Source: a virus (taxonomy: Duplodnaviria > Caudoviricetes). From it: 64,000 bases of DNA. The translations under genes were made by a program, and so were the position numbers. The notes under the pieces are model-generated. The model saw only the letters and a list, made by a program, of their open reading frames with translations, had not been told where the DNA came from and searched no databases. Where the stretch lies: IMG/VR virus record IMGVR_UViG_3300028585_000519, positions 5,001 through 69,000 of that record; one strand, written 5' to 3'. Positions 12,737 to 55,267 of this stretch are shown one piece after another. Numbering within the stretch: position 1 is the first letter of the stretch; every line of letters begins with the position of its first letter.

Positions 12737-12771
12737 GTCCTTTCCAGCGGCGAGCGGGGCGGCCAAGTTTG
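12737..12771 (+). promoter_or_regulatory. Phage late promoter motif, copy 1
   Basis: GTCCTTT-N20-CAAGTTTG, ATG 4 nt downstream. Confidence 0.75.
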
Positions 12772-12775
12772 TACT

Positions 12776-14650
12776 ATGGCTGTACTGAGCAAGCAGGAGT
12801 TTAAAGAAAAGTGGGGGGGTAAGTTCGCCGACAACACCATCCAGGACATCGACGAGGCGATGCTGCGCGACTTTCGCCAGGACATCGCCGATACGTTTGC
12901 CCACGTGGGGGCCATCAGTGCGCCCACGGCGCCGGACTACGACGCCGGGGCGATATACGCCAAGGGCGCGCTCGTGCTCTTCGGGCTACCTAACAAGTTG
13001 TTCTACCAAGCCAAGGTGCCGGGTCTGCTGCCCACCCCCACGCCCGTCGAGGAAACGGCCGAGTGGCTGCCGGTGGCCCCGCCACTCTCGCCGCTGCTGC
13101 CCTACCGCGAAATGCCGGTGCTGCAGGCGCAGGATTATAGTAGTAATGGCCTGCTGGAGCCGAGTACCTTATACCGCCTCACCGGCCGCGTGGATGCCGC
13201 TGGCGCGGCGCTCGATGACGTACTCGTGGCGGCAGTGAGCCGCCACCAGGTGGCGGGGGCAGATGCGTACGCCATCCATGTTGACCCGCAGACCCGCCAG
13301 GAGCAGCTGCTGGCGGTGAGCTACGAGCTGGCCACCGACATCACCTCGCCACGCACGGGCGGCGCAGTAGCGTTGCCTGTTTTCGTCGATGAGAACGGCA
13401 ACATCATCGTTGGCGTCAACGCCAGCCACAGCATAGCTGGCAACTTCAACACCATCATCGGTGGCGAGGATTGCCATATTGACCACCCGGCCAGCTCGTT
13501 CAACTACATCTCCTCCAGCACCGGCGTGCAGATTCTAGCGGGCCGCGATAACTCGGTGAGCAGCAGGCGGGGCGGCACTATCGAAGGCGGCCGAAGCAAC
13601 ACCATCGTCGGCGGCGGCGGCGTCATCCCAGCCACTTGCTCCGGCGTGACGCTCATTAACTGCGCCGATTTCATAGCCCCGGCCGGGGTGAATGATGCCA
13701 CCTACATCAACAACGTGCTGGTCGGGGGGAGCAGCGGCGCGGCGCGGGTGCAGCTCACCACCGAGCCGGGCCGGCGCGTGGCCGTGCTGGCCGTGGAGTC
13801 GAACCAGCTGGCCATTTCCAGCGTGCGCCTGTTCGACAATGCCAGCGCGGCCAACTTCCAGCTCAACAAGCGGGTGGGCGGCAACTGGGCTCCCGGCACG
13901 CAGCTGCCGCTGAGCAGCCTCAACGCGGCAATCAGCGCCCTGACGCCGGCCGAACTCACGGCGGGCGCGGAAATTGAAATCGAAACCCAGCAAACGGGCG
14001 AGCAGGCCAACCAATTTCTGGCCCTGTTCTCGCTCGCCGGCCGCAGCGGCACGCTGCTGCTGCTCGGTACCCGGCCAGCGCGGCGCGTCTACAACCCCGA
14101 CGTGTCGCCCCAGCCGCAGCGAGGCTTGCTATTCAATGCCCCCGGCAGCACGCAGCAGCGGTTCTCCTTTCCCACGCCCGCCCTGACGGAGGCTACGCTG
14201 ACCTTTTGGGTGCGGCGTAACCAGGCCTTCGATGCGGGCACGGAGTATTGGTGCGTGAGTGGCCGGCCGGCCACCAATGCGTACCTGACCGGCGATAGCT
14301 CTTTCAACCTGCTCTATTACAGCGATGGGGTGAGCTTCAGCACCTGCGCCCTGGGTATGCCCACGGGCCTCTGGAAACGCGTGACGGTTTTGCTCACCAA
14401 CGTGGTAGCGGGCGAAATCACTATCAACGGCTCGTCGTCGGCCAGCGGCATCAGCGGCCTAGTCAACCTGGAATACCACGACGTGCGCCTGTATTCGCGC
14501 CACTTCAGTATCGACGAGCGCAACAACCGCACGGCCGCGCCCACCGACTCGCTGCTGGCCCGCTTCACCCTGCCTTACGACCTGGATACGAGTGTGCCGG
14601 TACTGGACGAGTCCGGCCACGGCGCCACGGGTACCCTTTCCAATTTCTAA
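12776..14650 (+). CDS. Putative receptor-binding or fibre protein
   Basis: CBM5/12-like DYDAGAIYAKGALV...TAEWLP, Gly/Asn-rich beta-helix-like middle, LamG-like C-terminus (TLTFWVRR...YHDVRLYSR). Confidence 0.55.
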   Translation: MAVLSKQEFKEKWGGKFADNTIQDIDEAMLRDFRQDIADTFAHVGAISAPTAPDYDAGAIYAKGALVLFGLPNKLFYQAKVPGLLPTPTPVEETAEWLPVAPPLSPLLPYREMPVLQAQDYSSNGLLEPSTLYRLTGRVDAAGAALDDVLVAAVSRHQVAGADAYAIHVDPQTRQEQLLAVSYELATDITSPRTGGAVALPVFVDENGNIIVGVNASHSIAGNFNTIIGGEDCHIDHPASSFNYISSSTGVQILAGRDNSVSSRRGGTIEGGRSNTIVGGGGVIPATCSGVTLINCADFIAPAGVNDATYINNVLVGGSSGAARVQLTTEPGRRVAVLAVESNQLAISSVRLFDNASAANFQLNKRVGGNWAPGTQLPLSSLNAAISALTPAELTAGAEIEIETQQTGEQANQFLALFSLAGRSGTLLLLGTRPARRVYNPDVSPQPQRGLLFNAPGSTQQRFSFPTPALTEATLTFWVRRNQAFDAGTEYWCVSGRPATNAYLTGDSSFNLLYYSDGVSFSTCALGMPTGLWKRVTVLLTNVVAGEITINGSSSASGISGLVNLEYHDVRLYSRHFSIDERNNRTAAPTDSLLARFTLPYDLDTSVPVLDESGHGATGTLSNF

Positions 14651-14660
14651 GTTTAGTACA

Positions 14661-15161
14661 ATGGCTTTTCTTACTTCCGCCCATAAGCACCTCGAATTAC
14701 GCGTCGATGACGTGGTGCATGCCGAAACCCGAGTGGGCCAGGTGGCCCGCGTGTGGAGCCTGCACCACGAGCAGGACGATGCCGGGATATGCCGGGTCGA
14801 AATCGGCGTTAAACTGCTGCTCTTTAGCCTCGCTAGTAACGAGTTGAATGAGCGCCTGCCCGAAACGCGGTTTGTGACGTTGAAAACCGTGCTCAAGGGC
14901 AACAACGACACGCTGGTGGAGCACCGGACGGGCCGCATCCTGGCCATCCGCGACGTGCCGGGCAACGCGGGTACGGCCGTCACGCCGCATACGGCCGACT
15001 CGGCCGACTGGGGCGCGCTGTGCCGCTCCTTCGAGGTCGATACCATGCTGCAAGGCGACTGGTTCGAGGAAATTCGCGACGGCCGGGCCATCATCACCGG
15101 CGAGTGGATTGTGGCCAACCTGCAGCAGGCCTATCAGATGGGCCGCTTCTCCCAGCCATGA
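14661..15161 (+). CDS. Hypothetical phage late protein
   Basis: Follows the fibre gene in the same unit. Confidence 0.6.
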   Translation: MAFLTSAHKHLELRVDDVVHAETRVGQVARVWSLHHEQDDAGICRVEIGVKLLLFSLASNELNERLPETRFVTLKTVLKGNNDTLVEHRTGRILAIRDVPGNAGTAVTPHTADSADWGALCRSFEVDTMLQGDWFEEIRDGRAIITGEWIVANLQQAYQMGRFSQP

Positions 15162-15238
15162 GTTTTCCCGCCTGGTGGCTGCTCGTGCCGCTCGTGGCGT
15201 TGCTGGCCACCGTCCTCTACCGCGCTAGCCGGCGCTAG
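15158..15238 (+). CDS. 26-aa single-TM peptide
   Basis: MSFPAWWLLVPLVALLATVLYRASRR; ATGA overlap; followed by a terminator. Confidence 0.45.
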   Translation: MSFPAWWLLVPLVALLATVLYRASRR

Positions 15239-15245
15239 CTCACCC

Positions 15246-15273
15246 GCCCCGACCGCCTTGGTCGGGGCTTTTT
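15246..15273 (+). terminator. Intrinsic terminator
   Basis: GCCCCGACC/GGTCGGGGC stem plus T tract. Confidence 0.8.
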
Positions 15274-15276
15274 GCT

Positions 15277-15311
15277 GTCCTTTTTGCCGGCAATTGCCAC
15301 CGGCAGCTTTG
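15277..15311 (+). promoter_or_regulatory. Phage late promoter motif, copy 2
   Basis: GTCCTTT-N20-CAGCTTTG with GGCAATTGCC in the spacer. Confidence 0.75.
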
Positions 15312-15331
15312 CATCGTCTTAGCTACCCACG

Positions 15332-16684
15332 ATGCGCTCTACTAATCTGCTCGCCGTTATCCTCGGCTCCCCCTTCATGATGCAGCACCAGGCGGTGCTG
15401 GGCTACCTGCCCCAGGTGGCCATGCTGATGCGTGGGGAAGGCGTGCAGCAGCAGGGGCCGCTGGCCAAGCGCCGGATGCGCCCCACCATGATAGCCGAGC
15501 TGACGCCGGTCGGCGCCGCCACGGTGGCGGGCCGCAAGCGTGTGAAGGGCTACGACGAAGCGCCGGAAGGCTCGGTGGCCGTGCACTCGCTCAAGGGCGT
15601 GATGCTCAAGGATGACCAGATAGGGCTGTGCCAGGATGTGCCCGGTACGGCGAGCCTGGGCCGGGCCATGCTGGCGGCCGACGCCCACGAGAACGTGGTG
15701 GCCCACGTGCTGGCCATCGACTCGGGCGGGGGCAGCGTCGACGGCACGGCCGAGTACGGCGCCCTGATTAAGGGCCTGACCAAGCCGGTCGTGGCCTACT
15801 CCGATGGCATCATCGCCTCGGCCGCCTACTGGGCGGCCTCGAGCTGCGCCAAAATTGTGCTCAATAACAGCACGTGCGCGGTGGGTTCCATCGGCGTGAT
15901 GTGCAGCGTGGCCGACTACAAGCCCATGCTGGAGAAGCTGGGCGTCGTGTTTCACGACCTGCGCGCCGATGACTCGGACGAGAAAAACGAGGACTTCCGC
16001 CAGCTCATGGAGGGCAACCACAAGCCCTACATCGAGAACGTACTCAACCCGTTGCGCGAGATGTTCGCCAGCACCGTGAAGGAGAATCGCCCGCAGCTCG
16101 CCACCAAAGAGGGCGAAAAGCTGCTGCACGGCTCCATGTATTTCGCCAACGCGGCCGTGGCCGATGGCCTGGCCGACGAAATCGGCCCCTTCAGCCGCGC
16201 CGTGGAGCTAGCCCTGGAGCTAGCCGAGGCCGGCGACCCCACCACCGGCGCCGCCGGCGGCAACTCTGCCACCACTTCAACCCAACCCCCCATGTTCGGG
16301 AAAAACAAATTTCCGGCCGTCGCCGCACTGGCCGGCCTTTCGGGCGCTGCCCTCACCCCGGAGCTGGTATCAGCCGCCAATGACGAGCTGGAGACTGCCG
16401 GCATTTTGGGCGCCGCCCTGGTGACGGAGGCCAGCCTTACTACGCTGCAAAACGACAGCACGGCCTGGAACGCGGCCCACACGGCCCTCGAAGCCGCCGG
16501 CGCGACCGACGTGGTCGCCCTGGCCGCCGACCGCGACAAATACAAGGCGGAGGCCGCCGCCTTTGGCAATCAGCCGGGCGTGCTGCCCACCAGCTCTACC
16601 AAGACCGGCACCGACGTGGCCGAAGGCGGCGATGCCAACGACAAGCTCGTGAACGACCTGCACGAGAAGATGCTCAACGGCTAG
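15332..16684 (+). CDS. S49-family prohead protease with scaffold-like C-terminus
   Basis: IDSGGGSVDG, IASAAYWAAS, VGSIGV motifs; directly upstream of the capsid gene. Confidence 0.88.
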   Translation: MRSTNLLAVILGSPFMMQHQAVLGYLPQVAMLMRGEGVQQQGPLAKRRMRPTMIAELTPVGAATVAGRKRVKGYDEAPEGSVAVHSLKGVMLKDDQIGLCQDVPGTASLGRAMLAADAHENVVAHVLAIDSGGGSVDGTAEYGALIKGLTKPVVAYSDGIIASAAYWAASSCAKIVLNNSTCAVGSIGVMCSVADYKPMLEKLGVVFHDLRADDSDEKNEDFRQLMEGNHKPYIENVLNPLREMFASTVKENRPQLATKEGEKLLHGSMYFANAAVADGLADEIGPFSRAVELALELAEAGDPTTGAAGGNSATTSTQPPMFGKNKFPAVAALAGLSGAALTPELVSAANDELETAGILGAALVTEASLTTLQNDSTAWNAAHTALEAAGATDVVALAADRDKYKAEAAAFGNQPGVLPTSSTKTGTDVAEGGDANDKLVNDLHEKMLNG

Positions 16685-16726
16685 TGCCCTAGTATTCCTT
16701 TTTATCAACGTTTTAAGTTACTACCG

Positions 16727-19127: not shown

Positions 19128-19164
19128 GGAGGAGCTTGGAGGAGCAGGAAGCTCGCTTTTTTCG

Positions 19165-19197
19165 GCGCCCCGACCAATGGTCGGGGCGCTTTTTTTT
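19165..19197 (+). terminator. Intrinsic terminator
   Basis: GCGCCCCGACC/GGTCGGGGCGC stem plus T8. Confidence 0.85.
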
Positions 19198-19232
19198 GTC
19201 CTTTTCCCCAGCAAGATACAGTGCCAGGTTTG
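19198..19232 (+). promoter_or_regulatory. Phage late promoter motif, copy 3
   Basis: GTCCTTT-N20-CAGGTTTG. Confidence 0.75.
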
Positions 19233-19866: not shown

Positions 19867-20515
19867 TCCGAACTATACCCCCGACACTGAAACGGCCCTG
19901 GACCGCATCCGGGCCTCGTTTTTCTCCGATGAGGAAGACCCCGACGCCCAATTGAGCCCGGCAGAGCTGGACCAGAAGGGCCAGCTCGTGTGCGCCCACG
20001 CCAACCGCACCGAGGGCAAAAGCCTGGAAAAAACCGTGAAGCTGCTCATCGCCCGCTACGGCGTGAGCCGAGCCACGGCCTACCGCCGGTGCCGCGACGC
20101 CTCGGTTTTGTTTGCCGACGTGACGCGCACCCACAAGGAAGGCGAGCGCCAGATTGTGTACGAGATGGCCCAGCGCGCTTACCGCGATGCGGCTAAGCTC
20201 GGCGACCCCAAGGGTATGAACGGGGCCATCGCCAACATGATTAAGCTCAAGCGCCTCGATAAGGAGGACTCGGCCGCGCTTACGCCCGACCTGCTGGGCG
20301 ACAAAACCTACTACCTGCAGGTAGGGCAGGGGAGTGGTAAGGGCCAGAAGGTCATTGACCTGGGGCAGTTGGAGCACCTCGACGAGGGCACCTACGCCGA
20401 GGTAGTAGACGCCGTGGAAAGCTCGGATTTGCCCCTGGCAGGCATGAGAGCCCTGTTGTTGGAAGCTAGAGAGGAAGGAGAAGAAGATGTCGACGACGAA
20501 CGCGCCGCAGGTTAA
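19853..20515 (+). CDS. Terminase small subunit (putative)
   Basis: HTH-like IARYGVSRATAYRR; directly upstream of the large terminase. Confidence 0.65.
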   Translation: MMETNPNYTPDTETALDRIRASFFSDEEDPDAQLSPAELDQKGQLVCAHANRTEGKSLEKTVKLLIARYGVSRATAYRRCRDASVLFADVTRTHKEGERQIVYEMAQRAYRDAAKLGDPKGMNGAIANMIKLKRLDKEDSAALTPDLLGDKTYYLQVGQGSGKGQKVIDLGQLEHLDEGTYAEVVDAVESSDLPLAGMRALLLEAREEGEEDVDDERAAG

Positions 20516-22178
20516 GCCCCTGCACTTCAATCGGCCCCAGCTGCGGTTTATGATTAGCAAGCTGGCCAGCGCGGTTTCGCTCTGGAGCCGGGCCACGGGT
20601 AAGAGCACGCTCATTGCCTGGCTCATGCACCTCATCGTGACCAAGATGCCGCGCTCGTGCTGGGCCATCGTGGGCTCGACCTACGCCCAGATTCTGACGC
20701 GCACGCTGCCCTCGACCATCGCGAGCCTGGAGCGGCTGGGCTATTTGAAGGACGTGCACTACTTCATCGGGCGCAAGCCACCGCAGGGCTGGGGCTGGCC
20801 CGAGCCCTACCAGCGCCCGGTCCGCTACGACCACTTCATCATTTTCTATACCGGGGCCGGCTTTCACCTCATCAGCCAGGACGGCAACGGCAGCAGCTCG
20901 CGCGGCGTGAACCTGGACGGCTACATCGGCGACGAGGCCCTGCTGCTCGACCGCGAAAAGCTGGGTACGGACGTGATTGCGGCCAACCGGGGCAACAAAG
21001 ATTACTGGCCCGGCTGCCAGCTGCACCACGGCAAGTTTCTGTTCAGCTCGATGCCCTGGGGCGATACGGGCAAGTGGCTGCTGGACGAGGCAGCCTACTA
21101 CGAGCGCGACGGGCAGAATTTCGGCCTGGTGCGCGAGCGCCTGATTGCCTTGCAGCTCGACTTCGTGGACAGCCGCTCGATGAAGACTCGCGAGCAACTC
21201 TACGAGGAAATTCTGGCCCTCTCGGCCCAGTTGCGCTTTTACCCCAACCAGGCGAAGCTCAAGCGCGGTGATAAGCAGGTGGCCAAGGGCATGCTCTACT
21301 CGGAGGCCAACATCTTCGATAATATTCAGAACCTGGGCATTCCGTACCTGGAAGAGCAGCGCCGCGAGCTATCGGATTTCATGTTTTTGATTGAAATCCT
21401 GAATCAGCGGCCCAAGTCGGTGGAGGCGGGCTTCTACCCCAAGCTCGCGGCCCACCACGCCCAGGAGTGCCCCGATAACGCTTACGTGGCTGGCCTGGAG
21501 TTCAACCTGAGCCGGCTCAGCGTGCACGATAGCCGCATGGACGGCGACTGCCGGGCCCACCAGCCCCTGCGCATGTCGGTGGACTGGGGCGCCACCATCA
21601 GCACCATGCTGCTGGCCCAGGTACACGCCGACGTGAGCGAGTACCGCTTCCTCAAGGGCCTGTACGTGAAGCATCCCAAGCTGATTAAGGACCTAGCCAA
21701 GCTCTTCACCACCTACTACGCCTACCACTTGAACAAGGTGGTGGAGCTGGTTCAGGATAACGAGTGGGGTAACCGCCGCGCCCCCGACGCCAAGCTGACT
21801 TACAACGAGCAACTCATCGAGGAGTTGCGCGACGCCGGCTGGCGGGTGCGCGTCATCGACCAGGGCCGGGCTCCGGACTACGCCGTGCGCTACAAGCTGG
21901 CCATGGACCTGCTGGGCGAGGCCGATAGCCGCCAGCTGCGCATCCGCTTCAACAAGGTCAACTGCCGCGACGTGCTCACGGCCTTGAGCATGGCGCCCCT
22001 GCGCATCGGTAGCAAGGGACAGACCGAGAAGGATAAGCGCAGTGAGCAGCGCAAGACCACGCCGGCCCAGGAGGCCACCCACTTCACCGACAACGTGGAC
22101 CTGCACTTCGTCTCAATTGACAAGTACGTGGCCAAGGCAGCGGGCAGTGGGCATGGCCTACTCATCGTCAGTGCCTAG
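20487..22178 (+). CDS. terL: Terminase large subunit
   Basis: Walker A SRATGKS, Walker B YIGDEA, RNase H-like SVDWG and HFTDNVD. Confidence 0.85.
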   Translation: MSTTNAPQVKPLHFNRPQLRFMISKLASAVSLWSRATGKSTLIAWLMHLIVTKMPRSCWAIVGSTYAQILTRTLPSTIASLERLGYLKDVHYFIGRKPPQGWGWPEPYQRPVRYDHFIIFYTGAGFHLISQDGNGSSSRGVNLDGYIGDEALLLDREKLGTDVIAANRGNKDYWPGCQLHHGKFLFSSMPWGDTGKWLLDEAAYYERDGQNFGLVRERLIALQLDFVDSRSMKTREQLYEEILALSAQLRFYPNQAKLKRGDKQVAKGMLYSEANIFDNIQNLGIPYLEEQRRELSDFMFLIEILNQRPKSVEAGFYPKLAAHHAQECPDNAYVAGLEFNLSRLSVHDSRMDGDCRAHQPLRMSVDWGATISTMLLAQVHADVSEYRFLKGLYVKHPKLIKDLAKLFTTYYAYHLNKVVELVQDNEWGNRRAPDAKLTYNEQLIEELRDAGWRVRVIDQGRAPDYAVRYKLAMDLLGEADSRQLRIRFNKVNCRDVLTALSMAPLRIGSKGQTEKDKRSEQRKTTPAQEATHFTDNVDLHFVSIDKYVAKAAGSGHGLLIVSA

Positions 22179-22223
22179 TGGCAATTGCCGCGAGATGTAA
22201 CACGAGCTTTCCTCACAAAACCT

Positions 22224-22463: not shown

Positions 22464-22498
22464 GTCCTTTTTGCGCAGGGGCACCTAGCCCAGTTTTG
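22464..22498 (+). promoter_or_regulatory. Phage late promoter motif, copy 4
   Basis: GTCCTTT-N20-CAGTTTTG. Confidence 0.75.
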
Positions 22499-22790: not shown

Positions 22791-22849
22791 AGGAGTGCCT
22801 GGCCGGCTAGGGAGTCGGCAGGATGGAGGAACGTGCAGGAGAAGATTTT

Positions 22850-24235
22850 ATGCGAGTAGTTATTAGCCCAGATGGGCGTTTCGGCCACGTCGATGGCGGC
22901 GAGACCGTGTTCAAGCTCAACGCCGGTGTCAGCGGCCCCAGTGGCGGCAGTGGCGCCGGCAATCTGCCGGCGGCCGAGCCCACCTCACCTCAGCGCAAGC
23001 CCGAGGGCGGGGGCCTTATCTCGCCCTGGGGCGAGGACAACCTGTTTCCGCAGGCCGTGGTCAAGGACATGGAGAAAAACACGGTGTTGCCCGCCGTGCT
23101 GGAGCAAAAAACGGCCACTATGTACGGCCAGGGTATCGCCTACGGCATCATTGCGGGCGTCGATAAGAGTGGCGCCAAGCAGTTCGAGGGGCAATACGTG
23201 CCCGAAATCGAGGACTTTTTGGAGGGTTCCAACGTGGCGCGCTACGCCTTCGAATGCCTGAAGGATATCAACATCTTCGGTAATGCTTTCCCCGAGCTGA
23301 TACTGAGCAAGAACCGGCAGAAAATTGTCGGTATTGCGCTTCAGGACGCAGTTTGGTGCCGCTACGGCATCCCTAAAAACGGGGTGGTGGACTACGTCTA
23401 CCTCAACGCCAACTGGCACGACGGCGGCTCGGCCACCGACCCGGTGCTCACCACCAAGATTCCGCTTATCGACCCCTACTACGACGCCGTGGGCAACCTA
23501 CGCGCCCGTACCGATAGCTTCAATTACTGCTATCCGCTCAGCATCCCTTCGCCCGACAAGGCGCTCTACCAGCTCGTGGCCTGGAACTCGCTGCGCCGCT
23601 CGGGCTGGCTCGACGTGGCCGCCGCCATTCCCGAGTTCAAGAAGATGCTGTTCAAAAACCAGCTTAGCGTCAAGTACTTGGTGGAGATTCACTCGTCGTA
23701 CTGGAACTGTAAGTACGGCGAATGGGATGCGCTACCCCAGGAGGAGCGCACGCGCCTGCTCTCGGAAGAGCTGACGACCTTCAACAACGTCATGAGCGGT
23801 ACCAACGGTGCTGGTAAGACGGTGATGTCCACTACGTACACCGATAAACTCACGGGTAAGGAGTTCTCGGCTTTCAAGATTACGGCCATCGATGACAAGC
23901 TCAAGGACGGCATCTACATCGAGGACTCGCAGGAGGCCAGCAGCCACATCTACACGGCCGTGGGCTACGCGCCGGCCCTAATGGGCGTCTCGCCCGGCAA
24001 GGGCATGGGGGGCGGCGCCGGCGGTGGCTCCGAGCCCCGGGTGCTGTTTTCCAATTTCATCAGCACCGCCCAATTCCACATGGACTTGGTGCTGGAGCCG
24101 CTCAACCTGATTGCCCGCTACAACAACTGGACGGTGGGCGGCAAGCCCATCCGCTTCAAGTTCCTGCCGCCCCTGGTCATGACCGAAGCCACGGCCAACA
24201 CCCCCTCGGCCGACCCGCAGCAGCAGTCGAAATAA
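22850..24235 (+). CDS. Portal protein (putative)
   Basis: About 460 aa downstream of terminase; PWGEDNLFPQ N-terminal motif; homologous remnant at 52075. Confidence 0.7.
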   Translation: MRVVISPDGRFGHVDGGETVFKLNAGVSGPSGGSGAGNLPAAEPTSPQRKPEGGGLISPWGEDNLFPQAVVKDMEKNTVLPAVLEQKTATMYGQGIAYGIIAGVDKSGAKQFEGQYVPEIEDFLEGSNVARYAFECLKDINIFGNAFPELILSKNRQKIVGIALQDAVWCRYGIPKNGVVDYVYLNANWHDGGSATDPVLTTKIPLIDPYYDAVGNLRARTDSFNYCYPLSIPSPDKALYQLVAWNSLRRSGWLDVAAAIPEFKKMLFKNQLSVKYLVEIHSSYWNCKYGEWDALPQEERTRLLSEELTTFNNVMSGTNGAGKTVMSTTYTDKLTGKEFSAFKITAIDDKLKDGIYIEDSQEASSHIYTAVGYAPALMGVSPGKGMGGGAGGGSEPRVLFSNFISTAQFHMDLVLEPLNLIARYNNWTVGGKPIRFKFLPPLVMTEATANTPSADPQQQSK

Positions 24236-27476: not shown

Positions 27477-27696
27477 ATTCACTAAACCTCGGCTTCGTCA
27501 GCCGGGAATAAGGAGGCAAATATATCGCGGGAGGATGCTGTGTCGCATAACCTATTTAAGCCGGGTGTATGGCGGATGTGAATAATTCACAAAGCATTGA
27601 CATTTTATTGGTTATAAAGACTAGGGTTCTGTATATTGGTCGCGAGTTACGCAAGGTTTTCCTTGTGTGACTCGCTCACTCTCACCCCCTAAAACT

Positions 27697-29361
27697 ATGA
27701 GAAAACACCTACTGCTAGTGCCCGGCTTACTTTTTATGCTAGGCGGCACAGCAACCTGGGCTCAACAAGTCCCGACTGCGCCACCATTGCCAATCCCCAG
27801 CGATTCTCTGGTGGAACTGGATAGGATGCTAGCCCGGCCCCTTACCACGGCAATTGTCACGCAAGACGCGTACGATAGGATTGTCTATCAGCAGCAGGTG
27901 AAGACCAGCGGTATGGCAGTGCAACAGGGTAAGACGCTGGGCACGAGCATTACGGCCGATGACAAGGGAGGTACCCTCAATGTGGGCTCCTTTGGCATCG
28001 GCCGAGCAAAGAGAGTGGCTGTGCAAGGCACGGTCAATTACAAGGCAGAAGACGGGTTCGTAAAGCTGTTTGTAAACGAGAAGTATCAAAAAACACTCAG
28101 CTTTGGCGGTACTGCCCTCTGGTTTAGAGCCCCTAAAAAATCATTCGCTGATGAAGACCGGCAAAAGCTGCATAATAAGTTGCGTAAAGAGCGCAAAGAG
28201 GATGCTGCGTACTGGTCGGCTGAGGCGAATGATGCTCGCTGGAAGCTAGCCTACACCGAGTACAAGGGAAAGCTTGCGAGTTTTCGCAAGTACCGTAAGC
28301 TTTTTGGTCAGTGGCTGACCGATGGCCTCGATAATACGGTCCTGCAGGCTTATTTACGAGATGGAACATTCCCCCCGATGGGCGCTGACAGGTTGAGGTG
28401 GTATGATAAGACGGGTAAGAATCTAGGTAGGGAAGACACAGATGATATGGCGGCACAGGAGCTTTATCTCAAGTACTTGAAGGTAGAGCAGGATGTCCTT
28501 CCCCTGCTTGACGTAGACTTGCCGTATTCTACTAGAACGCTGCCTGAAAAGAAGGCCATGCCTAAGCAGAAATGGGCGTCATTGACCTACCAGGAAGAAG
28601 TTCAAAGGCTAAAGGACTTACTCGTATTTAGTGGCGACTCTGCTCAGTATACAGAAGCTTGGCTGACGAAGCGACTAATGTTGTATTGGCTGGAAGCCGA
28701 CCGCAAGCGGCTCAGTGCGCGTGCGAGCCGCTACGATTCCCTGCAGCATAAAGTGAATTGGACTGGGCAAACCCGGTTTTGGACGAGCCTCTCTGTTTTC
28801 TACAACACGGTCAAGCAACCCATCTTTTCAGCCGCTAATAAGAAGCAGACCTACGCGGATGAGATTGTAGATGACTACTTTAAAGGAGAATTGGCCATGA
28901 ACTGGCTCTGGGAAACGGGCGTAGTTAATTCGTACGTTTCGGCTGGGGCTGGCCTGGATAACATGCTCGTGTTTTCTAAGAAAAATCTGCTTACCTATCA
29001 AACGAGTAGCCGACAAGCGACTGGCATTGGCAATGATTCTGCCCTGGTTGTAACGCAAAAGCAGCTCTACGCGGCCGTGCCGCCGGGGGGCTGGTACGTA
29101 AATCCCCACGTGCAAGCGGCCTTTACGGTGCCGCAGTGGCAGAATGTGGGGCTCTCGCTTAGTGCGGATTTTTTAGTGAATTTAACCCAAGCCAAGGCGC
29201 AGAACCAATACAGCTACCGAGCCGGTATTTTTATTCCCGTCCAGACCACCAAAAGTACGCTGCTACTCATGCCTCAAATTCGGTGGAAAAATACCGACCA
29301 GCCAAACCCCTGGACGTTTGGATTCAGCCTAACGGCCTCCGTGCCAGGGCTTTTAAAATAA
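27697..29361 (+). CDS. Secreted cargo (moron) protein of unknown function
   Basis: Signal peptide ending TWAQ; visibly lower GC; terminators on both sides. Confidence 0.75.
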   Translation: MRKHLLLVPGLLFMLGGTATWAQQVPTAPPLPIPSDSLVELDRMLARPLTTAIVTQDAYDRIVYQQQVKTSGMAVQQGKTLGTSITADDKGGTLNVGSFGIGRAKRVAVQGTVNYKAEDGFVKLFVNEKYQKTLSFGGTALWFRAPKKSFADEDRQKLHNKLRKERKEDAAYWSAEANDARWKLAYTEYKGKLASFRKYRKLFGQWLTDGLDNTVLQAYLRDGTFPPMGADRLRWYDKTGKNLGREDTDDMAAQELYLKYLKVEQDVLPLLDVDLPYSTRTLPEKKAMPKQKWASLTYQEEVQRLKDLLVFSGDSAQYTEAWLTKRLMLYWLEADRKRLSARASRYDSLQHKVNWTGQTRFWTSLSVFYNTVKQPIFSAANKKQTYADEIVDDYFKGELAMNWLWETGVVNSYVSAGAGLDNMLVFSKKNLLTYQTSSRQATGIGNDSALVVTQKQLYAAVPPGGWYVNPHVQAAFTVPQWQNVGLSLSADFLVNLTQAKAQNQYSYRAGIFIPVQTTKSTLLLMPQIRWKNTDQPNPWTFGFSLTASVPGLLK

Positions 29362-29378: not shown

Positions 29379-29412
29379 AAAGCCCCGCCGGAGCCAACCG
29401 GTGGGGCTTTTT
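29379..29412 (+). terminator. Intrinsic terminator
   Basis: AAAGCCCCGCCGG/CCGGTGGGGCTTT plus T tract. Confidence 0.75.
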
Positions 29413-29415
29413 GCT

Positions 29416-29450
29416 GTCCTTTTTGGCGGCAATTGCCACGCGCAGCTTTG
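29416..29450 (+). promoter_or_regulatory. Phage late promoter motif, copy 5
   Basis: GTCCTTT-N20-CAGCTTTG with GGCAATTGCC; ATG 4 nt downstream. Confidence 0.75.
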
Positions 29451-29454
29451 TGGC

Positions 29455-30276
29455 ATGCACGAAGTAGAATGGAATAAGCAGCCCAAGGAAGTGGCCGCGA
29501 CGTGGGACGAGCTGAGCCTGGTCCAACTGCCCCGGGTGGTCGCCATTTTGTACGGTAACTATACCGATGTCAATCGGCAGCGTATCGAGTTGCTGGAGGT
29601 ACTGCTGGGCGTCAGCCGCCCGCTGCTGCTGCGCCTCACACCGGTGCAGCTACTGGAGATTTTCTGGCTCACCGACTTCGTGCTCGCGGCGCCCGTGGCC
29701 CGCACCTTGGTCGTGGCCCCGGCCCTGCGCCCGGCCCGCTTCCGGCCCACCTACTACGCCCCGGCCGACGAGCTGGCCAACGTGAGCTTCCTGGAGTTCG
29801 CCTTCGCCGATGCCTACTTCGTGGCCTACTGCCAGGGCCGCGACCCGCAGTGGCTCCACCACCTGCTGGGCGTGCTCTACCGCCCCCAGCGCGCCCGCTA
29901 CCGGCCCCGCGCGGCCGACTACGGCGGCGACCGCCGCGCCGATTTCAACGAGCACCTCATTGAGCGCCACGCCGCCCGGCTGGCCCGGCTGCCCGAGGCC
30001 ACCAAGCTGCTCGTCTTTGCCTGGTACCAGGGCTGCCGGCACGCGCTGGAGCAGCGCTACCCGCACGTGTTCACGCCGGCCAATCAGGAGCAGGCCAAGG
30101 CCCACCCCGATGGCTGGGCCTTCGTGCTGCGCGAAATGAGTGGCCAGGCCTTCGGCTCGTTCACCGAAACCGGCCGCCAGCCCGCGCACCAGGTGCTCTC
30201 GAAGATGAATGACGACATCGCCCGCGCCGAGGAGCTGCGGCGCCAGGAGGAAGCCCAACACCACACCACCAACTAG
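29455..30276 (+). CDS. Tail assembly chaperone-like protein
   Basis: First gene of the tail module; homologous remnant at 55272. Confidence 0.55.
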   Translation: MHEVEWNKQPKEVAATWDELSLVQLPRVVAILYGNYTDVNRQRIELLEVLLGVSRPLLLRLTPVQLLEIFWLTDFVLAAPVARTLVVAPALRPARFRPTYYAPADELANVSFLEFAFADAYFVAYCQGRDPQWLHHLLGVLYRPQRARYRPRAADYGGDRRADFNEHLIERHAARLARLPEATKLLVFAWYQGCRHALEQRYPHVFTPANQEQAKAHPDGWAFVLREMSGQAFGSFTETGRQPAHQVLSKMNDDIARAEELRRQEEAQHHTTN

Positions 30277-35228: not shown

Positions 35229-35263
35229 GTCCTTTTTGCCGGCAATTGCCGCTTGCACCTTCG
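35229..35263 (+). promoter_or_regulatory. Phage late promoter motif, copy 6
   Basis: GTCCTTT-N20-CACCTTCG with GGCAATTGCC. Confidence 0.7.
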
Positions 35264-38300: not shown

Positions 38301-39051
38301 GGAGGCGCGCAAAAAGCACCACTCCTTATATACCGCCCTGGCCGCGGCCAAAATCATCATCGACGGCACGAAGGAAGTGCAGCAGATTTGGGAGTACTCG
38401 GCCGAGAACCCGGCCAACGGCCCCACGATGGGCGCCGCTGGTATTACGATGGGTGCCATCCAGACGGGTGTAGCCATTGCCCGTACGGCGGTGGCGCTCT
38501 CCAAGCTCGGCGGCGGCGGTGGGGAGGATAAGGGTGATTACAGCAGCTATGCCAAGGGCGGGGCCACCGGCACGGGCGCCGGCCTGGCCGTGTCGCCGAT
38601 GGGCCAGCTCATGCAGATGTCGGGCATGAGCGTGGGCACCAACGGGCGCCTGACCGACGGCTCGGGGTTCGCCGTGGCCGGCGTGGTGCACGAGGACGAG
38701 TACGTCATCCCGAAGTGGCAGCTGCAAGACCCGCAGGTGGCGGCCGTGGCCCAGTGGCTGGAGGCCCGGCGCCTGCGCGGCTTCGCCGATGGCGGGCACA
38801 CGTCGGCCAGTTCCGGCACCGTGCTGCCGGTGGCCACCGCCTCGCCCTCAACCGATGGCGAGCGCACCTACGCCGTGCAGACCCAGATGCTCGACGCTCT
38901 CGTGGCAATGACGCAGCAGTTAGGCGACGTGAAGCAGTGGCAAGACCGCTTGCAGGTGCACCTCAATATCCGCAACGCCCAGGCCCGCACCGACGAGTAC
39001 AAGCAGGTGCAGTACAACTCCGCTATCCGGAGCAAATCAGGCCCCGGGTAG
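35308..39051 (+). pseudogene. Tape measure protein interrupted by in-frame TAG at 36352-36354
   Basis: Both ORFs in one frame: SQGKDFD*LTEAVLDAGTGEFERLKEFGI; about 1247 codons in total; three N-terminal ~80-aa repeats (DDP.R..LIA). Confidence 0.85.
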
Positions 39052-47954: not shown

Positions 47955-48796
47955 TACCGCCCGGCGCATCTACGTCAACGAAAAGCAGCGGCAATTCCTG
48001 GCCGCCAAGCAAAAGCGCCGCAGCTTTGTCGGCGGCCGGGGCTCGGGCAAGACCACCGTGGCCGGCCACGAGACGCGGGTGCAGATGAACTACCTGCCCC
48101 GGGCCAAGGGCTTTTTGGCGGGCCTGACCTACACCCAGCTCACGAGCAACACGGTGCCAGCGATGGAAGGGGCCTGGGAGGCCCACAGGCTGCGCGAGTA
48201 CGACTCGAAGTCCGGTTTTGGCCACTACGTGAAGGGTAAACGCCCACCAGCTGAGAGGATTAAGCCCTACCAGCCCCCTAGCAATTACGAGAACGTGATT
48301 ACGTTTCTCAACGGCTACACCATCCAGATGCTGAGCATGGACCGGGCCGAGCTGGCGCGGGGTGGTAACTACGACTTCGGCCACATTGACGAGTCGGCCC
48401 TGATGAAGGAGGAGCACGTGAACAAGATTCTGCGCCCCATGATTCGGGGTAATATCTACCGTTTCGGCAACCTGCACCACCAAACCTTCTGCGATTACAC
48501 CTCCGTGCCCTGGCTGCCTTCAGGCCAGTGGATGTTCAAAACCGAGGACCTGGCCAAGGAAAGCCCCGACGAGGCGTTCTTTCTCGAAAGCACCGCCTAC
48601 GATAACGTGGCTGTACTGGGGGAGAGGTACTTACGCGACCTGCGCAACGGTATGACCCCGCTGGAGTGGGACGTGGAGGTACTAAATAAGCGCCTCACCA
48701 AGCTACCCAACTCCTTCTACCGGTCACCAAGTTCTGCGATAGCTACGAGCGCAAGCACGTGGTTATCTATGGTGACCGCAGCGGCAACAACAAGCA
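47944..48796 (+). pseudogene. Large terminase remnant, type B
   Basis: GGRGSGKTT, GHIDES; deletion near 48720 joins a C-terminal VIYGDRSG fragment. Confidence 0.82.
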
Positions 48797-49223
48797 GGAG
48801 GAGCATTTTATGGCCCGCCGCTACCTGTGCCCCGCCGGCAAGCCCACCATCGGCTACGGCCACGTGATACTCCCCGGGGAGGAGCGCTACCACACGGCCG
48901 TGCTCACCGAGGCCCAGGCCAGCGCCCTGCTTCAGCAGGATATCGACAAGAAGTACGGCGCCCACGTGGCCAGCCGCGTGCACCGCGACCTGACCCAAAA
49001 TCAATTCGATGCCCTGGTGTCGTTTTGCTTCAACATCGGTACCGGCAGTTTCGATAAGTCGAGCGTGCTGGCCCTGGCCAACGCCGGCGCTACCGACCCC
49101 CGGGTACTAGCTAACGCCTTCGGCCTCTGGAACAAAGTGACCAACCCCAAGACGAAAGTAAAAGAAATCAGCAAAGGACTCACCATCCGCCGCGCCCGCG
49201 AAGCGGCGCTTTATCTCTCGTAA
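48759..49223 (+). CDS. GH24 phage lysozyme, N-terminus replaced by a terminase fragment
   Basis: E-x8-C-x5-T (EHFMARRYLCPAGKPT), IGYGH, QFDALVSF..NIG, GLTIRRARE. Confidence 0.8.
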   Translation: MVIYGDRSGNNKQEEHFMARRYLCPAGKPTIGYGHVILPGEERYHTAVLTEAQASALLQQDIDKKYGAHVASRVHRDLTQNQFDALVSFCFNIGTGSFDKSSVLALANAGATDPRVLANAFGLWNKVTNPKTKVKEISKGLTIRRAREAALYLS

Positions 49224-49224
49224 G

Positions 49225-49827
49225 ATGAAATTACTCGACTACTGGCTGGCCGCCTGGGCCGGCTTCGTAAGTGGCATTGTGACGATGCTGCTGCTGCTAG
49301 CCCTGCTGCTGAGCCTGAGCAGCTGCACCACGAGCCGGCCCCCCGGCACGTTGCCCCCGGTGCCGGTAGACCTGGCCACGGTGCAGCGCCTGGACTCGGC
49401 CACCCTGCAAAACTGGCTGCCTAGCGACCTCTCGGGCCTGCCCCCGTACCTGGTACCGGCCCCGGCCGGCTCCAGTCCCCGGCAGCGCCGGCAGTGGCAA
49501 AAGGCCCAGGCCGAGAACCTGGCCCGCGCCGGGGTGCAGCCCACCACGGTTAAAATCAAAAACAGCAGCGTGGCCACCGCGCCCGGGGCCACGGCCGTCA
49601 ACCGCCCGGCCTCGGCCGTGGCCACTGCTGCCGGCAGCGTGGCCACCGATGCGCGCAAGGCCGGCCAGCGCGGCGGGCCGGGGGCGGTGGCCACGGCCAC
49701 GAGCAGCAGCGGCCTGCCCTGGTGGGTGTATCTATTAGTAGCCGTGCTCGGGGCGGTAGGCTGGGAGTTGTTCTCGGCCAAAGTGGCCCCGGTGCGTCAG
49801 TTGCTCCGGTGGCGAATGGTAAGTTAG
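49225..49827 (+). CDS. Unimolecular spanin-like lipoprotein
   Basis: Lipobox LSSC, C-terminal TM PWWVYLLVAVLG; next to the lysozyme. Confidence 0.7.
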   Translation: MKLLDYWLAAWAGFVSGIVTMLLLLALLLSLSSCTTSRPPGTLPPVPVDLATVQRLDSATLQNWLPSDLSGLPPYLVPAPAGSSPRQRRQWQKAQAENLARAGVQPTTVKIKNSSVATAPGATAVNRPASAVATAAGSVATDARKAGQRGGPGAVATATSSSGLPWWVYLLVAVLGAVGWELFSAKVAPVRQLLRWRMVS

Positions 49828-49958
49828 AGAAAGAGGGGCGTGCGCCTTGCTGGGCTTCGTGTACCTAGACAGTGTACATTTGTAACGAATTGAATGATTG
49901 ACATTTTTTGTTAGTAAGTTATTCGTCATTTTCTAGAAAGCCCCGCCTGATTCAGGCG

Positions 49959-50967
49959 ATGAAAGCCATCTGCTACTTCCCGAGTGCCCCTAAGCAAGGC
50001 AAATTCTACTCGGAGGTCCATGCCTTCGACAATATCAAGAACCTGGGCTTGCAGTACCTGCTCGACCAGCGGGCCTTCATGACGGACTTTACCTTCCAGA
50101 TTGAGCTGATGAACCGCCGCCCCACGACCGTGGAGGGCGGTTTCTACCCGCGCCTCAATACGGCCCTGCACGTGCAGGAGTGCGCCGACGACGACTTTGT
50201 GCTGGGCCTGGCCCTGGGCGACGAGCACACCCCCCGCAAGGGCCGGGGCCAGCCCCAGGGCCTGAATCTGGAGAAGCTCACGGCGGCCCGCGCTTTGCGG
50301 GCGACGCTGACTTCTCCGATAGCCGCGGCGATAGTGACTGCCGCGCCCACCAGCCCCTACGCGTGAGCGTGGACTGGGGCGGTAGCATCACCACGCTGCT
50401 CGTAGGGCAGCCCCATTTGGATAAGCGCGATGCCGCATCCTAAAGAGCCTCTACGTCAAGCACCCGGCTTTTATCAATGACCTCGTGGAGGCCTTTGCCA
50501 ACTATTACTCGTGCTATTTGCGGGGTGAGATTGAGTTCCTAGCCGATGAGGAGTACGGTGATGCCTACCGGCCCAACAGCGAGCTTACCCTCAACAAGAC
50601 GCTCATGGCGGCCTTTCGCAAGCGGGGCTGGCGCATCCAGCGCTACGGGCTGGGCCGTATCCCGGGCCACCCCACGTGCTACGCCCTGGCCCAGGAGCTG
50701 CTAGGGGAGGAGAGCCCCAACCTGCTGCGCATCCGCTTCAACAAGGTCAACTGCAAGGACGTGCTCACGGCCATGCTATTGGCCCCGGTGAGCTAGGACT
50801 CAAAGGGGCGCATCATTAAGGTCAAGGCCAGTGAGAAGAAGACCAGCTTCCTGGCCGAGCACGCCACTCACTTTACTGATAACGTGGATTTGCACCTGCT
50901 CTGCTGCGGCACTGCGGTAATTAACGCCCAAGTGGATTTCAGTCAACTGAGGGTGTTTAGTACGTAA
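49959..50967 (+). pseudogene. Large terminase C-terminal remnant, type C (similar to the prophage 1 terminase)
   Basis: FDNIKNLG, VEGGFYPRL, SVDWGG, RFNKVNCKDVL, HFTDNVD in three frames; TAG at 50794. Confidence 0.85.
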
Positions 50968-51776: not shown

Positions 51777-51850
51777 ATATCCCCGAGGCCGCCCCGGCAA
51801 CTGCCGAACCGCGACAGAGCAAGCCGGGCACCGCGCGCGACCGGTGAAAC
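51777..51850. other. Second copy of the conserved post-terminase non-coding block
   Basis: ATATCC...GGCAACTGCC...ACAGAGCA...GCGAC...TGAAAC. Confidence 0.5.
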
Positions 51851-52074
51851 TGTGAAACATCTTTTTGGCCCAAAATCGCTGTTTGCAGCGCGCCAGGACC
51901 ATCTATTCGCCTTAAGGACGCGCTGGCCCTGCTCGACGGGCTGGGTCACTTTCGACCGCCACCGGCAAACGGGCTCGGCCTGGGCCAGCGCGCGGCCGAA
52001 GAGGCGGCCTGCGCCCGCCCACGGCCCGTGAAGAAACCGACGAGGACCGCGCCGCCCTCGCGGCCGATGGCCAG

Positions 52075-53163: not shown

Positions 53164-53465
53164 TGGCATAACTGTGATAACTGATGTAAAGGCTCCGTTA
53201 GCGGGGTTTGTATATCGGTTAAAATGTCGTTTTGAGGGTTAGTCAACAGAAGTATACAATGCCTCTAAAAGTATTGCCATCAAGATATGATTAATTAAAA
53301 TGTAAGATAGGCGCTAAATAGAAAGGTATTATCAAGTTAAAAAAGGGTACTTGAATGTCACAAAATCAGTCACTTTATCCTTTGTTTCAGGCGGTAGTAA
53401 AGCTGTCCTTTGCCTTTAGTCTCGCTGACCCGAGATACACCATTTCACTTCTTTTTAGTTTTCTT

Positions 53466-55175
53466 ATGAATGTTTCTCGACTCATACAGTTCACCCTTTT
53501 GTGTAGCGCGCTCCTGCTTGGGAGCGCGCAGCAAGCAGCGGCGCAAGAAGACGAAAGTTGGTATCGGGAGTACGTACGCAAACGCGCTCAGCAGCACACA
53601 ACCGTGCCCAAGGCCAGCAGCGCAAGGGCTGGGGGGGCAGCACAGCGCGTGAGCGTATGCGATGTGGGGATAAATGGTGACTTTGAAGACCAAAATGCTC
53701 AGCCGACCAGAACAGGAAACATGGGGGGGGAGCTTACGGGGCAAACCGCGCCCGACCAATTAAAAAATTGGTATTCTCCTTCTTTTGCTACTCCTGATTA
53801 CCTAGCTACGAATGCGCCAGCTACGTCGGATGTACAGCCCAATTACGAGAATTCAGTTTTTGGCTCTTCCACGCCGTTCTCAGATAACGGTCACATCGGT
53901 CTCTATACCCGCCAGCAGTTTACTGACACTGCCCCTCGTGACCGAGTAGCAGAGTACGCTAGCGTGCGTTTACCCAATGCCCTCATTGCTGGCGCGCGTT
54001 ACTATGCCGAACTACGCGTTAGTCTCGCCCACGGTAGCTTTTTAACGAACTACGGTATTACCAGTGGCTTTGGGATGCTGTTCACACCTGGCAACGTTAA
54101 CAATATAGGCACACGCGATTTTCTGCCATTCCCAACCACTCCTTATCAAACAATTTTCAATACTACTCCGATTGGGCAGAGTGCCATCAATAATGGCATA
54201 CTGGGCTCTACTAATTGGCAGCGAATATCTGGGCAGCTAGACGGAACCGCTGGAGGGCAGGCTATGCAGTACCTGACTATTGGACTTTTTAATTCGAATG
54301 CTTCCAATCAAACGTTGCTCCCTGGACGAGATGCTACGCGGCCTAATACGTACTTCTTTGTTGACGCGGTGCAGGTCTTCAAGATACCGACTGTTGGGGC
54401 AGCCCCGGCTACCCTTTGTACTGGCTCGGCGGTGACTTTGGGGGAAGGGTGCGATATCCCGGGGGCCTCCTACGCGTGGACGACTACGGGTAATAACACG
54501 CCCTTTGCTAATACCATCCAGACGACAGTGCGCCCCACCACTACCACTACTTACGTACTGACTGTGAGGCTGCCGGATGGTAGCACCTATCCTACTTCGG
54601 CCACCGTCAGAGTGCTGACGGCAGACCCGCAGGGGCTATATGGTAATTTTTATACACACAGGTATGATGGCTGCAGAAGGTATTATAATGTGCGTATGCA
54701 GCAGGTACCCGGTGCTACCAGATACGTGGCGAACGTAGGCGTAGGAGGAAATACTGCTGAAGGAGGAGCGGAGGGAATAGTGGACACCCAGACAGGCAAT
54801 GTGATATTTCCCGTCGACATAGAAGGTGCAGGCTACACTATTACGGCCCACATCACTGTCTTCATAAATGGGTCATGCAGTGGAAGACAGGATTTTGAAT
54901 TTTCGGAATATCTGTACGGTCCTGACCCGAACTGTGGCGGGCCAGGGCCTGGTCAAACGACCATAGCTGCACCCTACCCAAATCCAGCCAGCAGTGCCAT
55001 TACTCTGCCTGTGGGTGTTGAAAGTGCTACGTTGCTCGATAACCACGGTCAAACGGTACGGGTCTTGGATGGCACGAATAAAATTGATGTGCGAACCTTG
55101 CCAGCTGGTCTGTATAATCTACATATGCGACAAGATGGAAAGGTGATTAACAAGCACATTCAAGTAAGCCACTAA
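53466..55175 (+). CDS. T9SS type-A CTD secreted protein (cargo)
   Basis: Signal peptide; NGDFE...SPSFATPDYL CBM-like domain; C-terminal YPNPAS...LPAGLYNLHM. Confidence 0.85.
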   Translation: MNVSRLIQFTLLCSALLLGSAQQAAAQEDESWYREYVRKRAQQHTTVPKASSARAGGAAQRVSVCDVGINGDFEDQNAQPTRTGNMGGELTGQTAPDQLKNWYSPSFATPDYLATNAPATSDVQPNYENSVFGSSTPFSDNGHIGLYTRQQFTDTAPRDRVAEYASVRLPNALIAGARYYAELRVSLAHGSFLTNYGITSGFGMLFTPGNVNNIGTRDFLPFPTTPYQTIFNTTPIGQSAINNGILGSTNWQRISGQLDGTAGGQAMQYLTIGLFNSNASNQTLLPGRDATRPNTYFFVDAVQVFKIPTVGAAPATLCTGSAVTLGEGCDIPGASYAWTTTGNNTPFANTIQTTVRPTTTTTYVLTVRLPDGSTYPTSATVRVLTADPQGLYGNFYTHRYDGCRRYYNVRMQQVPGATRYVANVGVGGNTAEGGAEGIVDTQTGNVIFPVDIEGAGYTITAHITVFINGSCSGRQDFEFSEYLYGPDPNCGGPGPGQTTIAAPYPNPASSAITLPVGVESATLLDNHGQTVRVLDGTNKIDVRTLPAGLYNLHMRQDGKVINKHIQVSH

Positions 55176-55199
55176 TCGTTTTGCGAAACGAGGCTAGCC

Positions 55200-55230
55200 A
55201 AGCCCCAGCCCTCCCGGCTGGGGCTTTTTT
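55200..55230 (+). terminator. Intrinsic terminator
   Basis: AAGCCCCAGCC/GGCTGGGGCTT plus T tract. Confidence 0.8.
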
Positions 55231-55232
55231 GT

Positions 55233-55267
55233 ATCCTTTTCTACCGAGGCAGCCCCCGGCAATTTCG
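55233..55267 (+). promoter_or_regulatory. Phage late promoter motif, copy 7 (element 2)
   Basis: ATCCTTT-N20-CAATTTCG; ATG 4 nt downstream. Confidence 0.65.

Follow-up and report, generated by a model that had tools for sequence, protein, structure and literature searches.

The window analysed here, a stretch of 64,000 nucleotides (nt), is part of a 69-kilobase (kb) IMG/VR provirus record (IMGVR_UViG_3300028585_000519) and comprises a prophage, hereafter prophage 1, which spans about 3.7-40 kb with 60-70% guanine-cytosine (GC) content and AT-rich flanks, and a second element at 42-59 kb. The subject of this work is a bipartite element, RTCCTTT-N20-CANNTTYG, which occurs seven times in the window ahead of gene blocks and whose copies are, very probably, late-gene promoters. 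Relatives of the phage terminase are found in the genomes of Hymenobacter aranciens, H. rubidus, H. crusticola, H. psychrotolerans, H. terricola, H. pini and H. norwichensis, with remoter ones in Aequorivita and Saprospiraceae assemblies; because terminase relatives sit in Hymenobacter genomes, the host is taken to be a member of this genus (Bacteroidota). The second element is a decayed relative of prophage 1 (seen at 47968-50928 and 55181-56113), with the large terminase left as several out-of-frame pieces.

A pattern search returns exactly seven matches to the motif in the window, all on the plus strand, and none in 100 dinucleotide-preserving shuffles; permitting two mismatches adds just three weak matches, against 1.2 expected by chance. 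All sites lie between genes or begin with the preceding gene's stop codon, and the start codon of a gene block follows 1-45 nt downstream. A GC-rich hairpin followed by a T-run stands directly 5' of four of the seven sites (15277, 19198, 29416 and 55233), and a terminator scan recovers two of these four hairpins, at 15246-15268 and 19164-19190. The first-pass annotation had placed seven copies with an exact 20-nt spacer at the heads of structural modules and had set their CA against the TA of an early box at 3725. The pattern search and the gene positions confirm the former claim, and the latter holds as well, since the second box reads CAnnTT(T/C)G in all seven sites, not the TAnnTTTG of the sigma-A housekeeping promoter, whereas the early box at 3725-3732 reads TATGTTTG. 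The same annotation assigned the seventh site to a second phage: the motif is indeed present at 55233, but the element that carries it is the decayed one, and what follows the site is a homologue of gene 29455-30276 that has suffered a frameshift, with the frame switching between 55272-55661 and 55547-56074. A scan for the sigma-70 consensus is uninformative for Bacteroidota. The early box and the seven sites comprise, with protein lengths in amino acids (aa):

3725-3732, plus strand: early promoter -7 box, TATGTTTG, of the host type with TA, preceding the first rightward early gene (3773).
12737-12771, plus strand: probable late promoter 1, GTCCTTT-N20-CAAGTTTG, heading the gene of a 624-aa unknown protein whose ATG lies 4 nt past the last G, and hence predicted to be leaderless.
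15277-15311, plus strand: probable late promoter 2, directly after the terminator 15246-15268, heading a 450-aa head-protease-type gene, 15332-16684 (phrog_53).
19198-19232, plus strand: probable late promoter 3, directly after the terminator 19164-19190, heading a 210-aa gene, a 220-aa gene and the large terminase, 20487-22178 (phrog_2).
22464-22498, plus strand: probable late promoter 4, heading an 88-aa gene and a 470-aa gene, 22823-24235.
29416-29450, plus strand: probable late promoter 5, after a hairpin and T-run at about 29382-29415, with GGCAATTGCC in the spacer, heading tail genes; ATG 29455 lies 4 nt past the last G.
35229-35263, plus strand: probable late promoter 6, CACCTTCG, with GGCAATTGCC in the spacer, heading the tape-measure genes 35308-36354 and 36367-39051.
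55233-55267, plus strand: probable late promoter of the decayed second element, after a hairpin and T-run at about 55202-55232, orthologous to the 29416 site; ATG 55272 lies 4 nt past the last G.

Conservation, start-site geometry and contrast with host DNA

Related prophage and virus stretches were gathered by way of the terminase, whose sequences are 65-79% identical where sites recur syntenically; a query of viral contigs with the 624-aa protein found no relatives. A relaxed scan (TCCTTT-N18-22-[CT]A..TT[CT]G) over the window and 37 such stretches, 708 kb in all, yields 68 matches, 67 of which have a spacer of exactly 20 nt although 18-22 nt were permitted. Every match in the window and in the terminase-oriented loci L008-L031 is on the plus strand, barring the single N18 match, and in the minus-strand loci examined (L035, L042) the virion genes are likewise on the minus strand. 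Among the 65 distinct sites, bases that the pattern leaves free are also conserved, including (i) a G before TCCTTT (64/65), (ii) a T before that G (46/65), (iii) a G two bases before CA (54/65), and (iv) a G directly after CA (49/65), while the rest of the spacer is variable. The first base of the second box is part of a CA in 61 of these sites.

The sites recur at syntenic positions, ahead of the same genes, in related phages. Counterparts of the 12737 site are found at L012:873, L026:1184 and L027:492, those of the 15277 site in about 15 relatives, and those of the 22464 site in L012, L013, L014, L015, L025 and L026. The 470-aa gene that this last site heads in the window is homologous to a block annotated as portal in the record of Polaribacter phage Leef_1. 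Since the two boxes and their distance are kept while the spacers differ, the conserved unit has the appearance of a bipartite protein-recognition footprint and not of recombined homologous DNA. The resulting consensus, (T)GTCCTTT(T)-N19/20-(GG)CA(G)nTTTG, stands ahead of virion gene blocks, usually right after an intrinsic terminator. Like activator-dependent late promoters, it joins a defective core promoter to a conserved phage-specific site whose position is fixed, and it recurs before late operons.

The position of the start codons gives a second line of evidence. The sigma-A box of Flavobacterium psychrophilum, TAnnTTTG, occupies positions -12 to -5, and only 5.5% of the messenger RNAs (mRNAs) of this species are leaderless (PMC9723704). 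This rule places the predicted transcription start of the late sites 5 nt beyond the last G. In 27 of the 65 distinct sites, 22 of them with ATG, exactly 4 nt separate that G from a start codon (binomial p = 3e-19); in the window this spacing is seen with ATG at 12737, 29416 and 55233, and at 19198 by way of a GTG that is conserved in relatives, the N4-GTG arrangement recurring at L008:4657 and L014:187. With the start codon at the predicted transcription start in about 40% of the sites, many late mRNAs are predicted to be leaderless, and this geometry supports reading the sites as promoters.

Host DNA was sampled as 400 kb of the H. pini chromosome away from prophages (L045-L064). There, TAnnTTTG is about 5-fold enriched between genes, whereas its CA, GA and AA versions are merely 1.5-2.5-fold enriched; the 58 intergenic TAnnTTTG boxes share no conserved upstream element, none of them carries TCCTTT at N20, and the relaxed phage motif has a single match in the whole sample. 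The promoter-like boxes of this sample favour TA(C/T)CTTTG, again without a clear -33 consensus. A few host genes show the TAnnTTTG-N4-ATG layout, with an ATG 4 nt past the G in 6 of 121 TAnnTTTG occurrences, from which the host, too, seems to have some leaderless genes. Across five whole Hymenobacter genomes the strict motif has 29 matches, against seven for a reversed control, and nearly all 29 fall in co-oriented clusters, such as six within 56 kb of G004:C9 and five within 26 kb of G003:C20. Some clusters lie in prophages other than the terminase relative, so that several Hymenobacter phage lineages share the signal. The comparison of related prophages with host genomes, proposed in the first-pass annotation, finds the motif nearly absent from host DNA, where equal frequency would have spoken against a phage signal. 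The description of the motif as phage-specific stands with respect to the host, on the strength of the empty host boxes, the single match in the sample and the clustering in prophages; it does not stand in the sense of a motif private to one phage.

This wider distribution extends well outside the genus. A scan of IMG/VR for GTCCTTTT-N19-CANNTTTG returns at least 118 stretches, many of them chance matches in AT-rich DNA; among the IMG/VR matches listed, an ATG lies exactly 4 nt past the G in 13 of 122, where about two are expected, many also following a terminator, in phages with a GC content of 0.35-0.62. The cultured phage Leef_1 has TGTCCTTTT(T) boxes after terminators, ahead of several virion gene blocks. 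The TGTCC core, its fixed distance to a -7 type box, the common orientation, the place at the head of virion operons, often after terminators, and the conservation in relatives across the phylum are found together, and the signal is, to judge from this distribution, a promoter class shared across Bacteroidota phages.

The spacer of some sites displays an additional feature. A palindrome, GGCAATTGCC (core GCAATTGC), lies at 15289-15298, 29428-29437 and 35241-35250, at a fixed offset of 7-8 nt in the spacers of three of the six late sites of prophage 1. It is also present in the spacers of distant relatives with a GC content down to 0.39 (L012:19839, L013:10885, L022:4577, L025:18254, L027:17262, L016:4508 and L186:9638), and a second register, at offset 14 and overlapping CA, is found in L140, L142 and L167. 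Two more GCAATTGC palindromes lie at 22181 and 22298, in the non-coding stretch between the terminase stop codon and the fourth late site. The spacer palindrome could be the site of a second regulator that marks a sub-class of the promoters.

Candidate activator gene and the TA/CA split

The features immediately ahead of the first late site comprise:

11478-12026, plus strand: candidate late activator, 182 aa with a basic C-terminal tail, member of an uncharacterised family.
12043-12093, plus strand: three phased TTGTCCATT boxes, at 12043, 12063 and 12085, which lie where the candidate activator gene gives way to the tail-tube-like gene and have the TGTCC core of the late-promoter box.
12092-12736, plus strand: first gene after the candidate activator, 214 aa, tail-tube-like fold.

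Of the genes ahead of the first late site, all motif-bearing relatives with coverage of the region retain just two, namely the open reading frame (ORF) 11430-12026, whose true start is the GTG at 11478, and gene 12092-12736. The former had been singled out, as gene 11430, for reporter experiments in the first-pass annotation; it is the last gene before the virion genes and is conserved in all motif-bearing relatives, so that the choice holds up once the start is corrected. The AlphaFold2 model of the protein encoded by 12092-12736, with a predicted local distance difference test (pLDDT) score of 78, has the tail tube proteins of SPP1, T1, monocin and lambda, together with Hcp, as its best Foldseek rows (probability up to 0.97, with an E-value of 0.015); the gene is read, from this model, as a putative first virion gene.

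The second box of the bipartite sites divides according to the gene that follows. Three of the four TA sites among the 65 precede a homologue of window gene 11478-12026. In the five Hymenobacter genomes, TCCTTT-N20-TAnnTTTG has 11 matches, against six for the control, and seven of the 11 stand directly (about 25-60 nt) upstream of a member of the 11478 family, four of these members having family E-values between 1e-48 and 1e-64. Ahead of 11478-family genes, TCCTTT-N20 is followed by a TA-type box in L035, L036, L039, L043, L096 and L189-L192, including the near-TA versions TAGGTTTA in L036 and TATTATTG in L096, and by a GA box in L168; L017 and L042 display GTACTTT-N20-TAAGTTTG at this position. 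The promoter of an 11478-family gene never has CA, with TA in nine and GA in one of the 10 box-bearing relatives (Fisher p = 2e-11 versus the virion-gene sites), and every prophage, where readable, pairs a single TA-type copy at the 11478-family gene with five to seven CA-type copies at virion genes. The earlier claim that the change from T to C marks the late genes is thereby upheld.

Immediately upstream of the candidate gene, at 11017-11430, the window has an AT-rich divergent region together with a short ORF of about 60-86 aa on the minus strand, at the place where most relatives have TCCTTT-N20-TAnnTTTG.

The 11478 protein matches no Pfam or PHROG family. Its AlphaFold2 model (pLDDT 83) has no match by Foldseek in the PDB, no sigma factor included, and a VIA-align comparison pairs residues 91-150, weakly (Z about 5), with a mixture of three-helix and winged-helix DNA-binding domains. 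The statement of the first-pass annotation that no sigma or Q-like gene is recognisable agrees with the Pfam search of 20 early and border ORFs, which finds none. A profile of the 11478 family recovers 2,073 cluster representatives at an E-value of 0.001 or below, 723 of them at 1e-10 or below. The family is present in all relatives that cover the region, and beside the motif in phages with a GC content of 0.35-0.48 (L137, L016, L029, L186 and L193-L195). Among cultured phages, gp39 of Polaribacter phage Leef_1 is a member (profile E-value 1e-17; structural template modelling scores of 0.70/0.80), and gp34 of Flavobacterium phage 1H is a weak profile match (E-value 6e-5); a tblastn search with two distant family members against cultured phages gave no match, and a word-indexed profile search for the family found no further annotated relatives.

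Phased boxes recur behind the candidate gene, with one to four TGTCC boxes directly after the 11478-family gene in every relative examined, including phages with a GC content of 0.43-0.47. Reading the TTGTCCATT boxes as a promoter of the N20 type was tried and rejected, since the geometry does not fit. In one group of prophages (L036:13390-13480, L039:10670-10760, L043:6400-6480, L096 and L168) the phased boxes fall within the 3' end of the candidate-activator ORF, where they encode a repeated peptide, LSQKTGG / LSRKTGG, while the group of the window has them past the stop codon. The final box takes the form of an inverted repeat, TGTCC-N5-GGACA.

Proposed mechanism and competing explanations

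The reading that we favour, as the more probable one, is that the sites are activator-dependent late promoters, private to Bacteroidota phages and read by the host RNA polymerase. The downstream half would correspond to a -7 box (-12 to -5) for host sigma-A that a C in place of the initial T has weakened. The GTCC box would fill the host -33 slot, and a phage-made protein bound to it would recruit the host RNA polymerase, a design resembling that of a class II activator or of sigma appropriation. The first-pass annotation had likewise proposed a late regulon silenced by the change from T to C and switched on by a phage factor that reads TCCTTT, a proposal favoured by all of its computationally testable parts. 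That a dedicated phage factor reads the GTCC box is, in our judgement, rather likely; that this factor is the 11478 protein is a serious possibility, assessed at slightly below an even chance. The 11478 protein is the best candidate, and in most relatives its own gene is preceded by that box, at the N20 distance from a consensus TA -7 box. Given this full TA box, the host polymerase would make a little of the factor unaided, after which the factor would boost its own synthesis and switch on the CA promoters. A separate possibility, that the TTTG inside GTCCTTTTTG acts as the -33 element, was rejected, because the 12737 and 19198 sites lack it and the boxes would stand just 17 nt apart.

Several observations weigh against this interpretation or parts of it. 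The promoter of the window's own copy of the candidate gene lacks the TCCTTT box, its upstream region having been remodelled. The low-GC relatives L186 and L016 keep TA at late sites, and therefore the C is not essential to the promoter class; as the comparisons stand, the GTCC box and the spacing define the class and the C apparently belongs to the Hymenobacter branch. No DNA-binding domain is recognised in the 11478 protein, the sole structural hints being the weak matches at Z about 5 described above. Its link to the boxes consists of adjacency and co-occurrence, which a mere gene at the early/late border would show just as well. Finally, the three TTGTCCATT boxes depart from the N20 geometry and find no explanation in the proposed mechanism.

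The nearest competing explanation, which we regard as unlikely, is that one alternative sigma factor reads both boxes, without any activator of sigma-A; it may be a diverged phage sigma, the 11478 protein then acting like T4 gp55 or SPO1 gp28/gp34, or an alternative sigma of the host. Rigid spacing of two conserved boxes is typical of a sigma factor, and the conserved C with its flanking Gs (GGCAG) suggests positive recognition of the second box and not its mere weakening; against this, the nnTTTG that marks Bacteroidota sigma-A is retained in the second box, which lies as far from start codons as is usual. Moreover, the regulator promoter, with the same upstream box and a full TA, must fire before the factor exists, which fits host sigma-A better. 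The 11478 protein is of sigma-like size and mostly helical, with a fold that has no known match, but the scan of 20 early and border ORFs detects no Sigma70 domain, and no sigma is found among the fold matches. A host alternative sigma would, in addition, be expected to have host targets, of which almost none are present in the five genomes.

Less probable again is the view that these are ordinary constitutive promoters of host sigma-A with an unusually good upstream element, the timing being set by a repressor, read-through or copy number and no late factor being involved. The geometry is the same as that of a host promoter, with a -33 slot and a -7 box, and the Hymenobacter promoters, which lack a strong -33 consensus, suggest that the host polymerase may tolerate many upstream sequences; nevertheless, TCCTTT accompanies none of the 58 intergenic host boxes, and 61 of 65 sites begin the -7 box with C, a base that is not enriched there in host promoters. 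A repressor might find its operator in the palindrome GGCAATTGCC, yet this is present at just half of the prophage 1 sites. Six unrepressed promoters of virion genes would be costly in a lysogen, and the split between TA at the regulator and CA at the virion genes would be left unexplained. The last alternative, a non-promoter element such as a recombination sequence at module boundaries, a packaging or replication site or an RNA element, is very improbable: the sites do lie at module borders, and the spacers at 15277, 29416 and 35229 are near-identical, but in most copies just the boxes and their distance are conserved while the spacers differ, as expected for protein recognition and not for homologous exchange, strand and position relative to the start codons are fixed, the spacers share no hairpin, and an Rfam search of the window finds no RNA family.

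The activator-dependent reading can be placed beside three known kinds of promoter. Primary-sigma promoters of Bacteroidota reportedly (the description being attributed to Bayley in 2000 and Chen in 2007) comprise a -33 TTTG and a -7 TAnnTTTG. The phage sites resemble Bacteroidota sigma-A promoters in the A at position 2 and the TTTG at positions 5-8 of the second box, in the distance to the predicted start, and in an upstream box that occupies the -33 slot (19-21 nt spacing); they differ in the C that begins 61 of 65 second boxes, in the replacement of the -33 TTTG by an invariant GTCCTTT that is absent from the 58 host boxes, and in having a single spacing and not a range. The middle promoters of T4 combine a MotA box at -30 with a host -10 box, and are read through sigma appropriation by MotA/AsiA. 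The design proposed here is alike in that the host sigma would read the downstream box, a phage box would replace the upstream element at a fixed distance, and the promoter would be silent without the phage protein, whereas the host sigma is of the Bacteroidota type, the regulon comprises the late virion genes of a temperate siphophage, and no homologue of MotA or AsiA was detected.

Activator-dependent late promoters are also known from temperate phages, namely those of Mu (C protein), P2/186/P4 (Ogr, B, Delta) and the Gram-positive RinA/ArpU/Ltr family. As in these systems, a putative activator site beside a defective core promoter recurs at the head of several late operons, and the gene of the candidate activator lies just upstream of the late genes; unlike them, the site is one asymmetric box placed over the -33 slot where they have an upstream dyad, leaderless transcripts are predicted in many cases, and no sequence or fold relation of the 11478 protein to their activators was found.

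Neighbouring genes and significance

The window has several further genes of note. A 564-aa ORF, 27667-29361, lies just before the terminator and late site 5 of prophage 1; its third-position GC of 0.58 is below that of its neighbours, no relative has a homologue, and it is likely an inserted cargo gene (moron). The second element encodes a 606-aa protein, 53355-55175, with a type IX secretion C-terminal sorting domain and again no homologue in the relatives. On the minus strand of the AT-rich flank, 2-3101 contains two tandem ATPase genes, one of the AAA_15/AAA_21 OLD type and one with AAA_21 and DUF4435, which look like a defence island beside the prophage. The far end of the window, 59126-64000, has 70% GC and very long open frames on both strands (1624 aa on the minus strand and 1051 aa on the plus strand), the plus frame being without a Pfam family.

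The first-pass annotation knew of no description of this switch, and a literature search likewise found no published account of the motif. A phage box joined to a host core element is a known design, exemplified by T4 MotA, Mu C and P2 Ogr, to none of which the parts described here show a recognisable homology. What is new is the Hymenobacter branch, the TA/CA split between regulator and virion genes, and a defined family of candidate proteins with a cultured representative. How the virion genes of tailed Bacteroidota phages, with soil, marine and gut hosts, are switched on is not described in the literature searched, and an easily recognised signal offers (i) the annotation of late operons, with their exact start codons, in phage genomes whose annotation is very poor, (ii) the finding of prophages in Bacteroidota genomes, and (iii) the design of inducible expression parts for a phylum in which genetic tools are scarce. 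Given the TA/CA split and the conserved neighbour gene, the question of the switch becomes directly testable, and both cultured Leef_1 and several lysogenic Hymenobacter type strains exist. More tentatively, the 11478-12026 family may constitute a new, phylum-wide class of late-transcription factors, which would dock on GTCC in the -33 slot, redirect the unusual sigma-A polymerase of Bacteroidota, and govern a two-tier TA/CA circuit, with TA for its own gene and CA for the virion genes, with largely leaderless late mRNAs.

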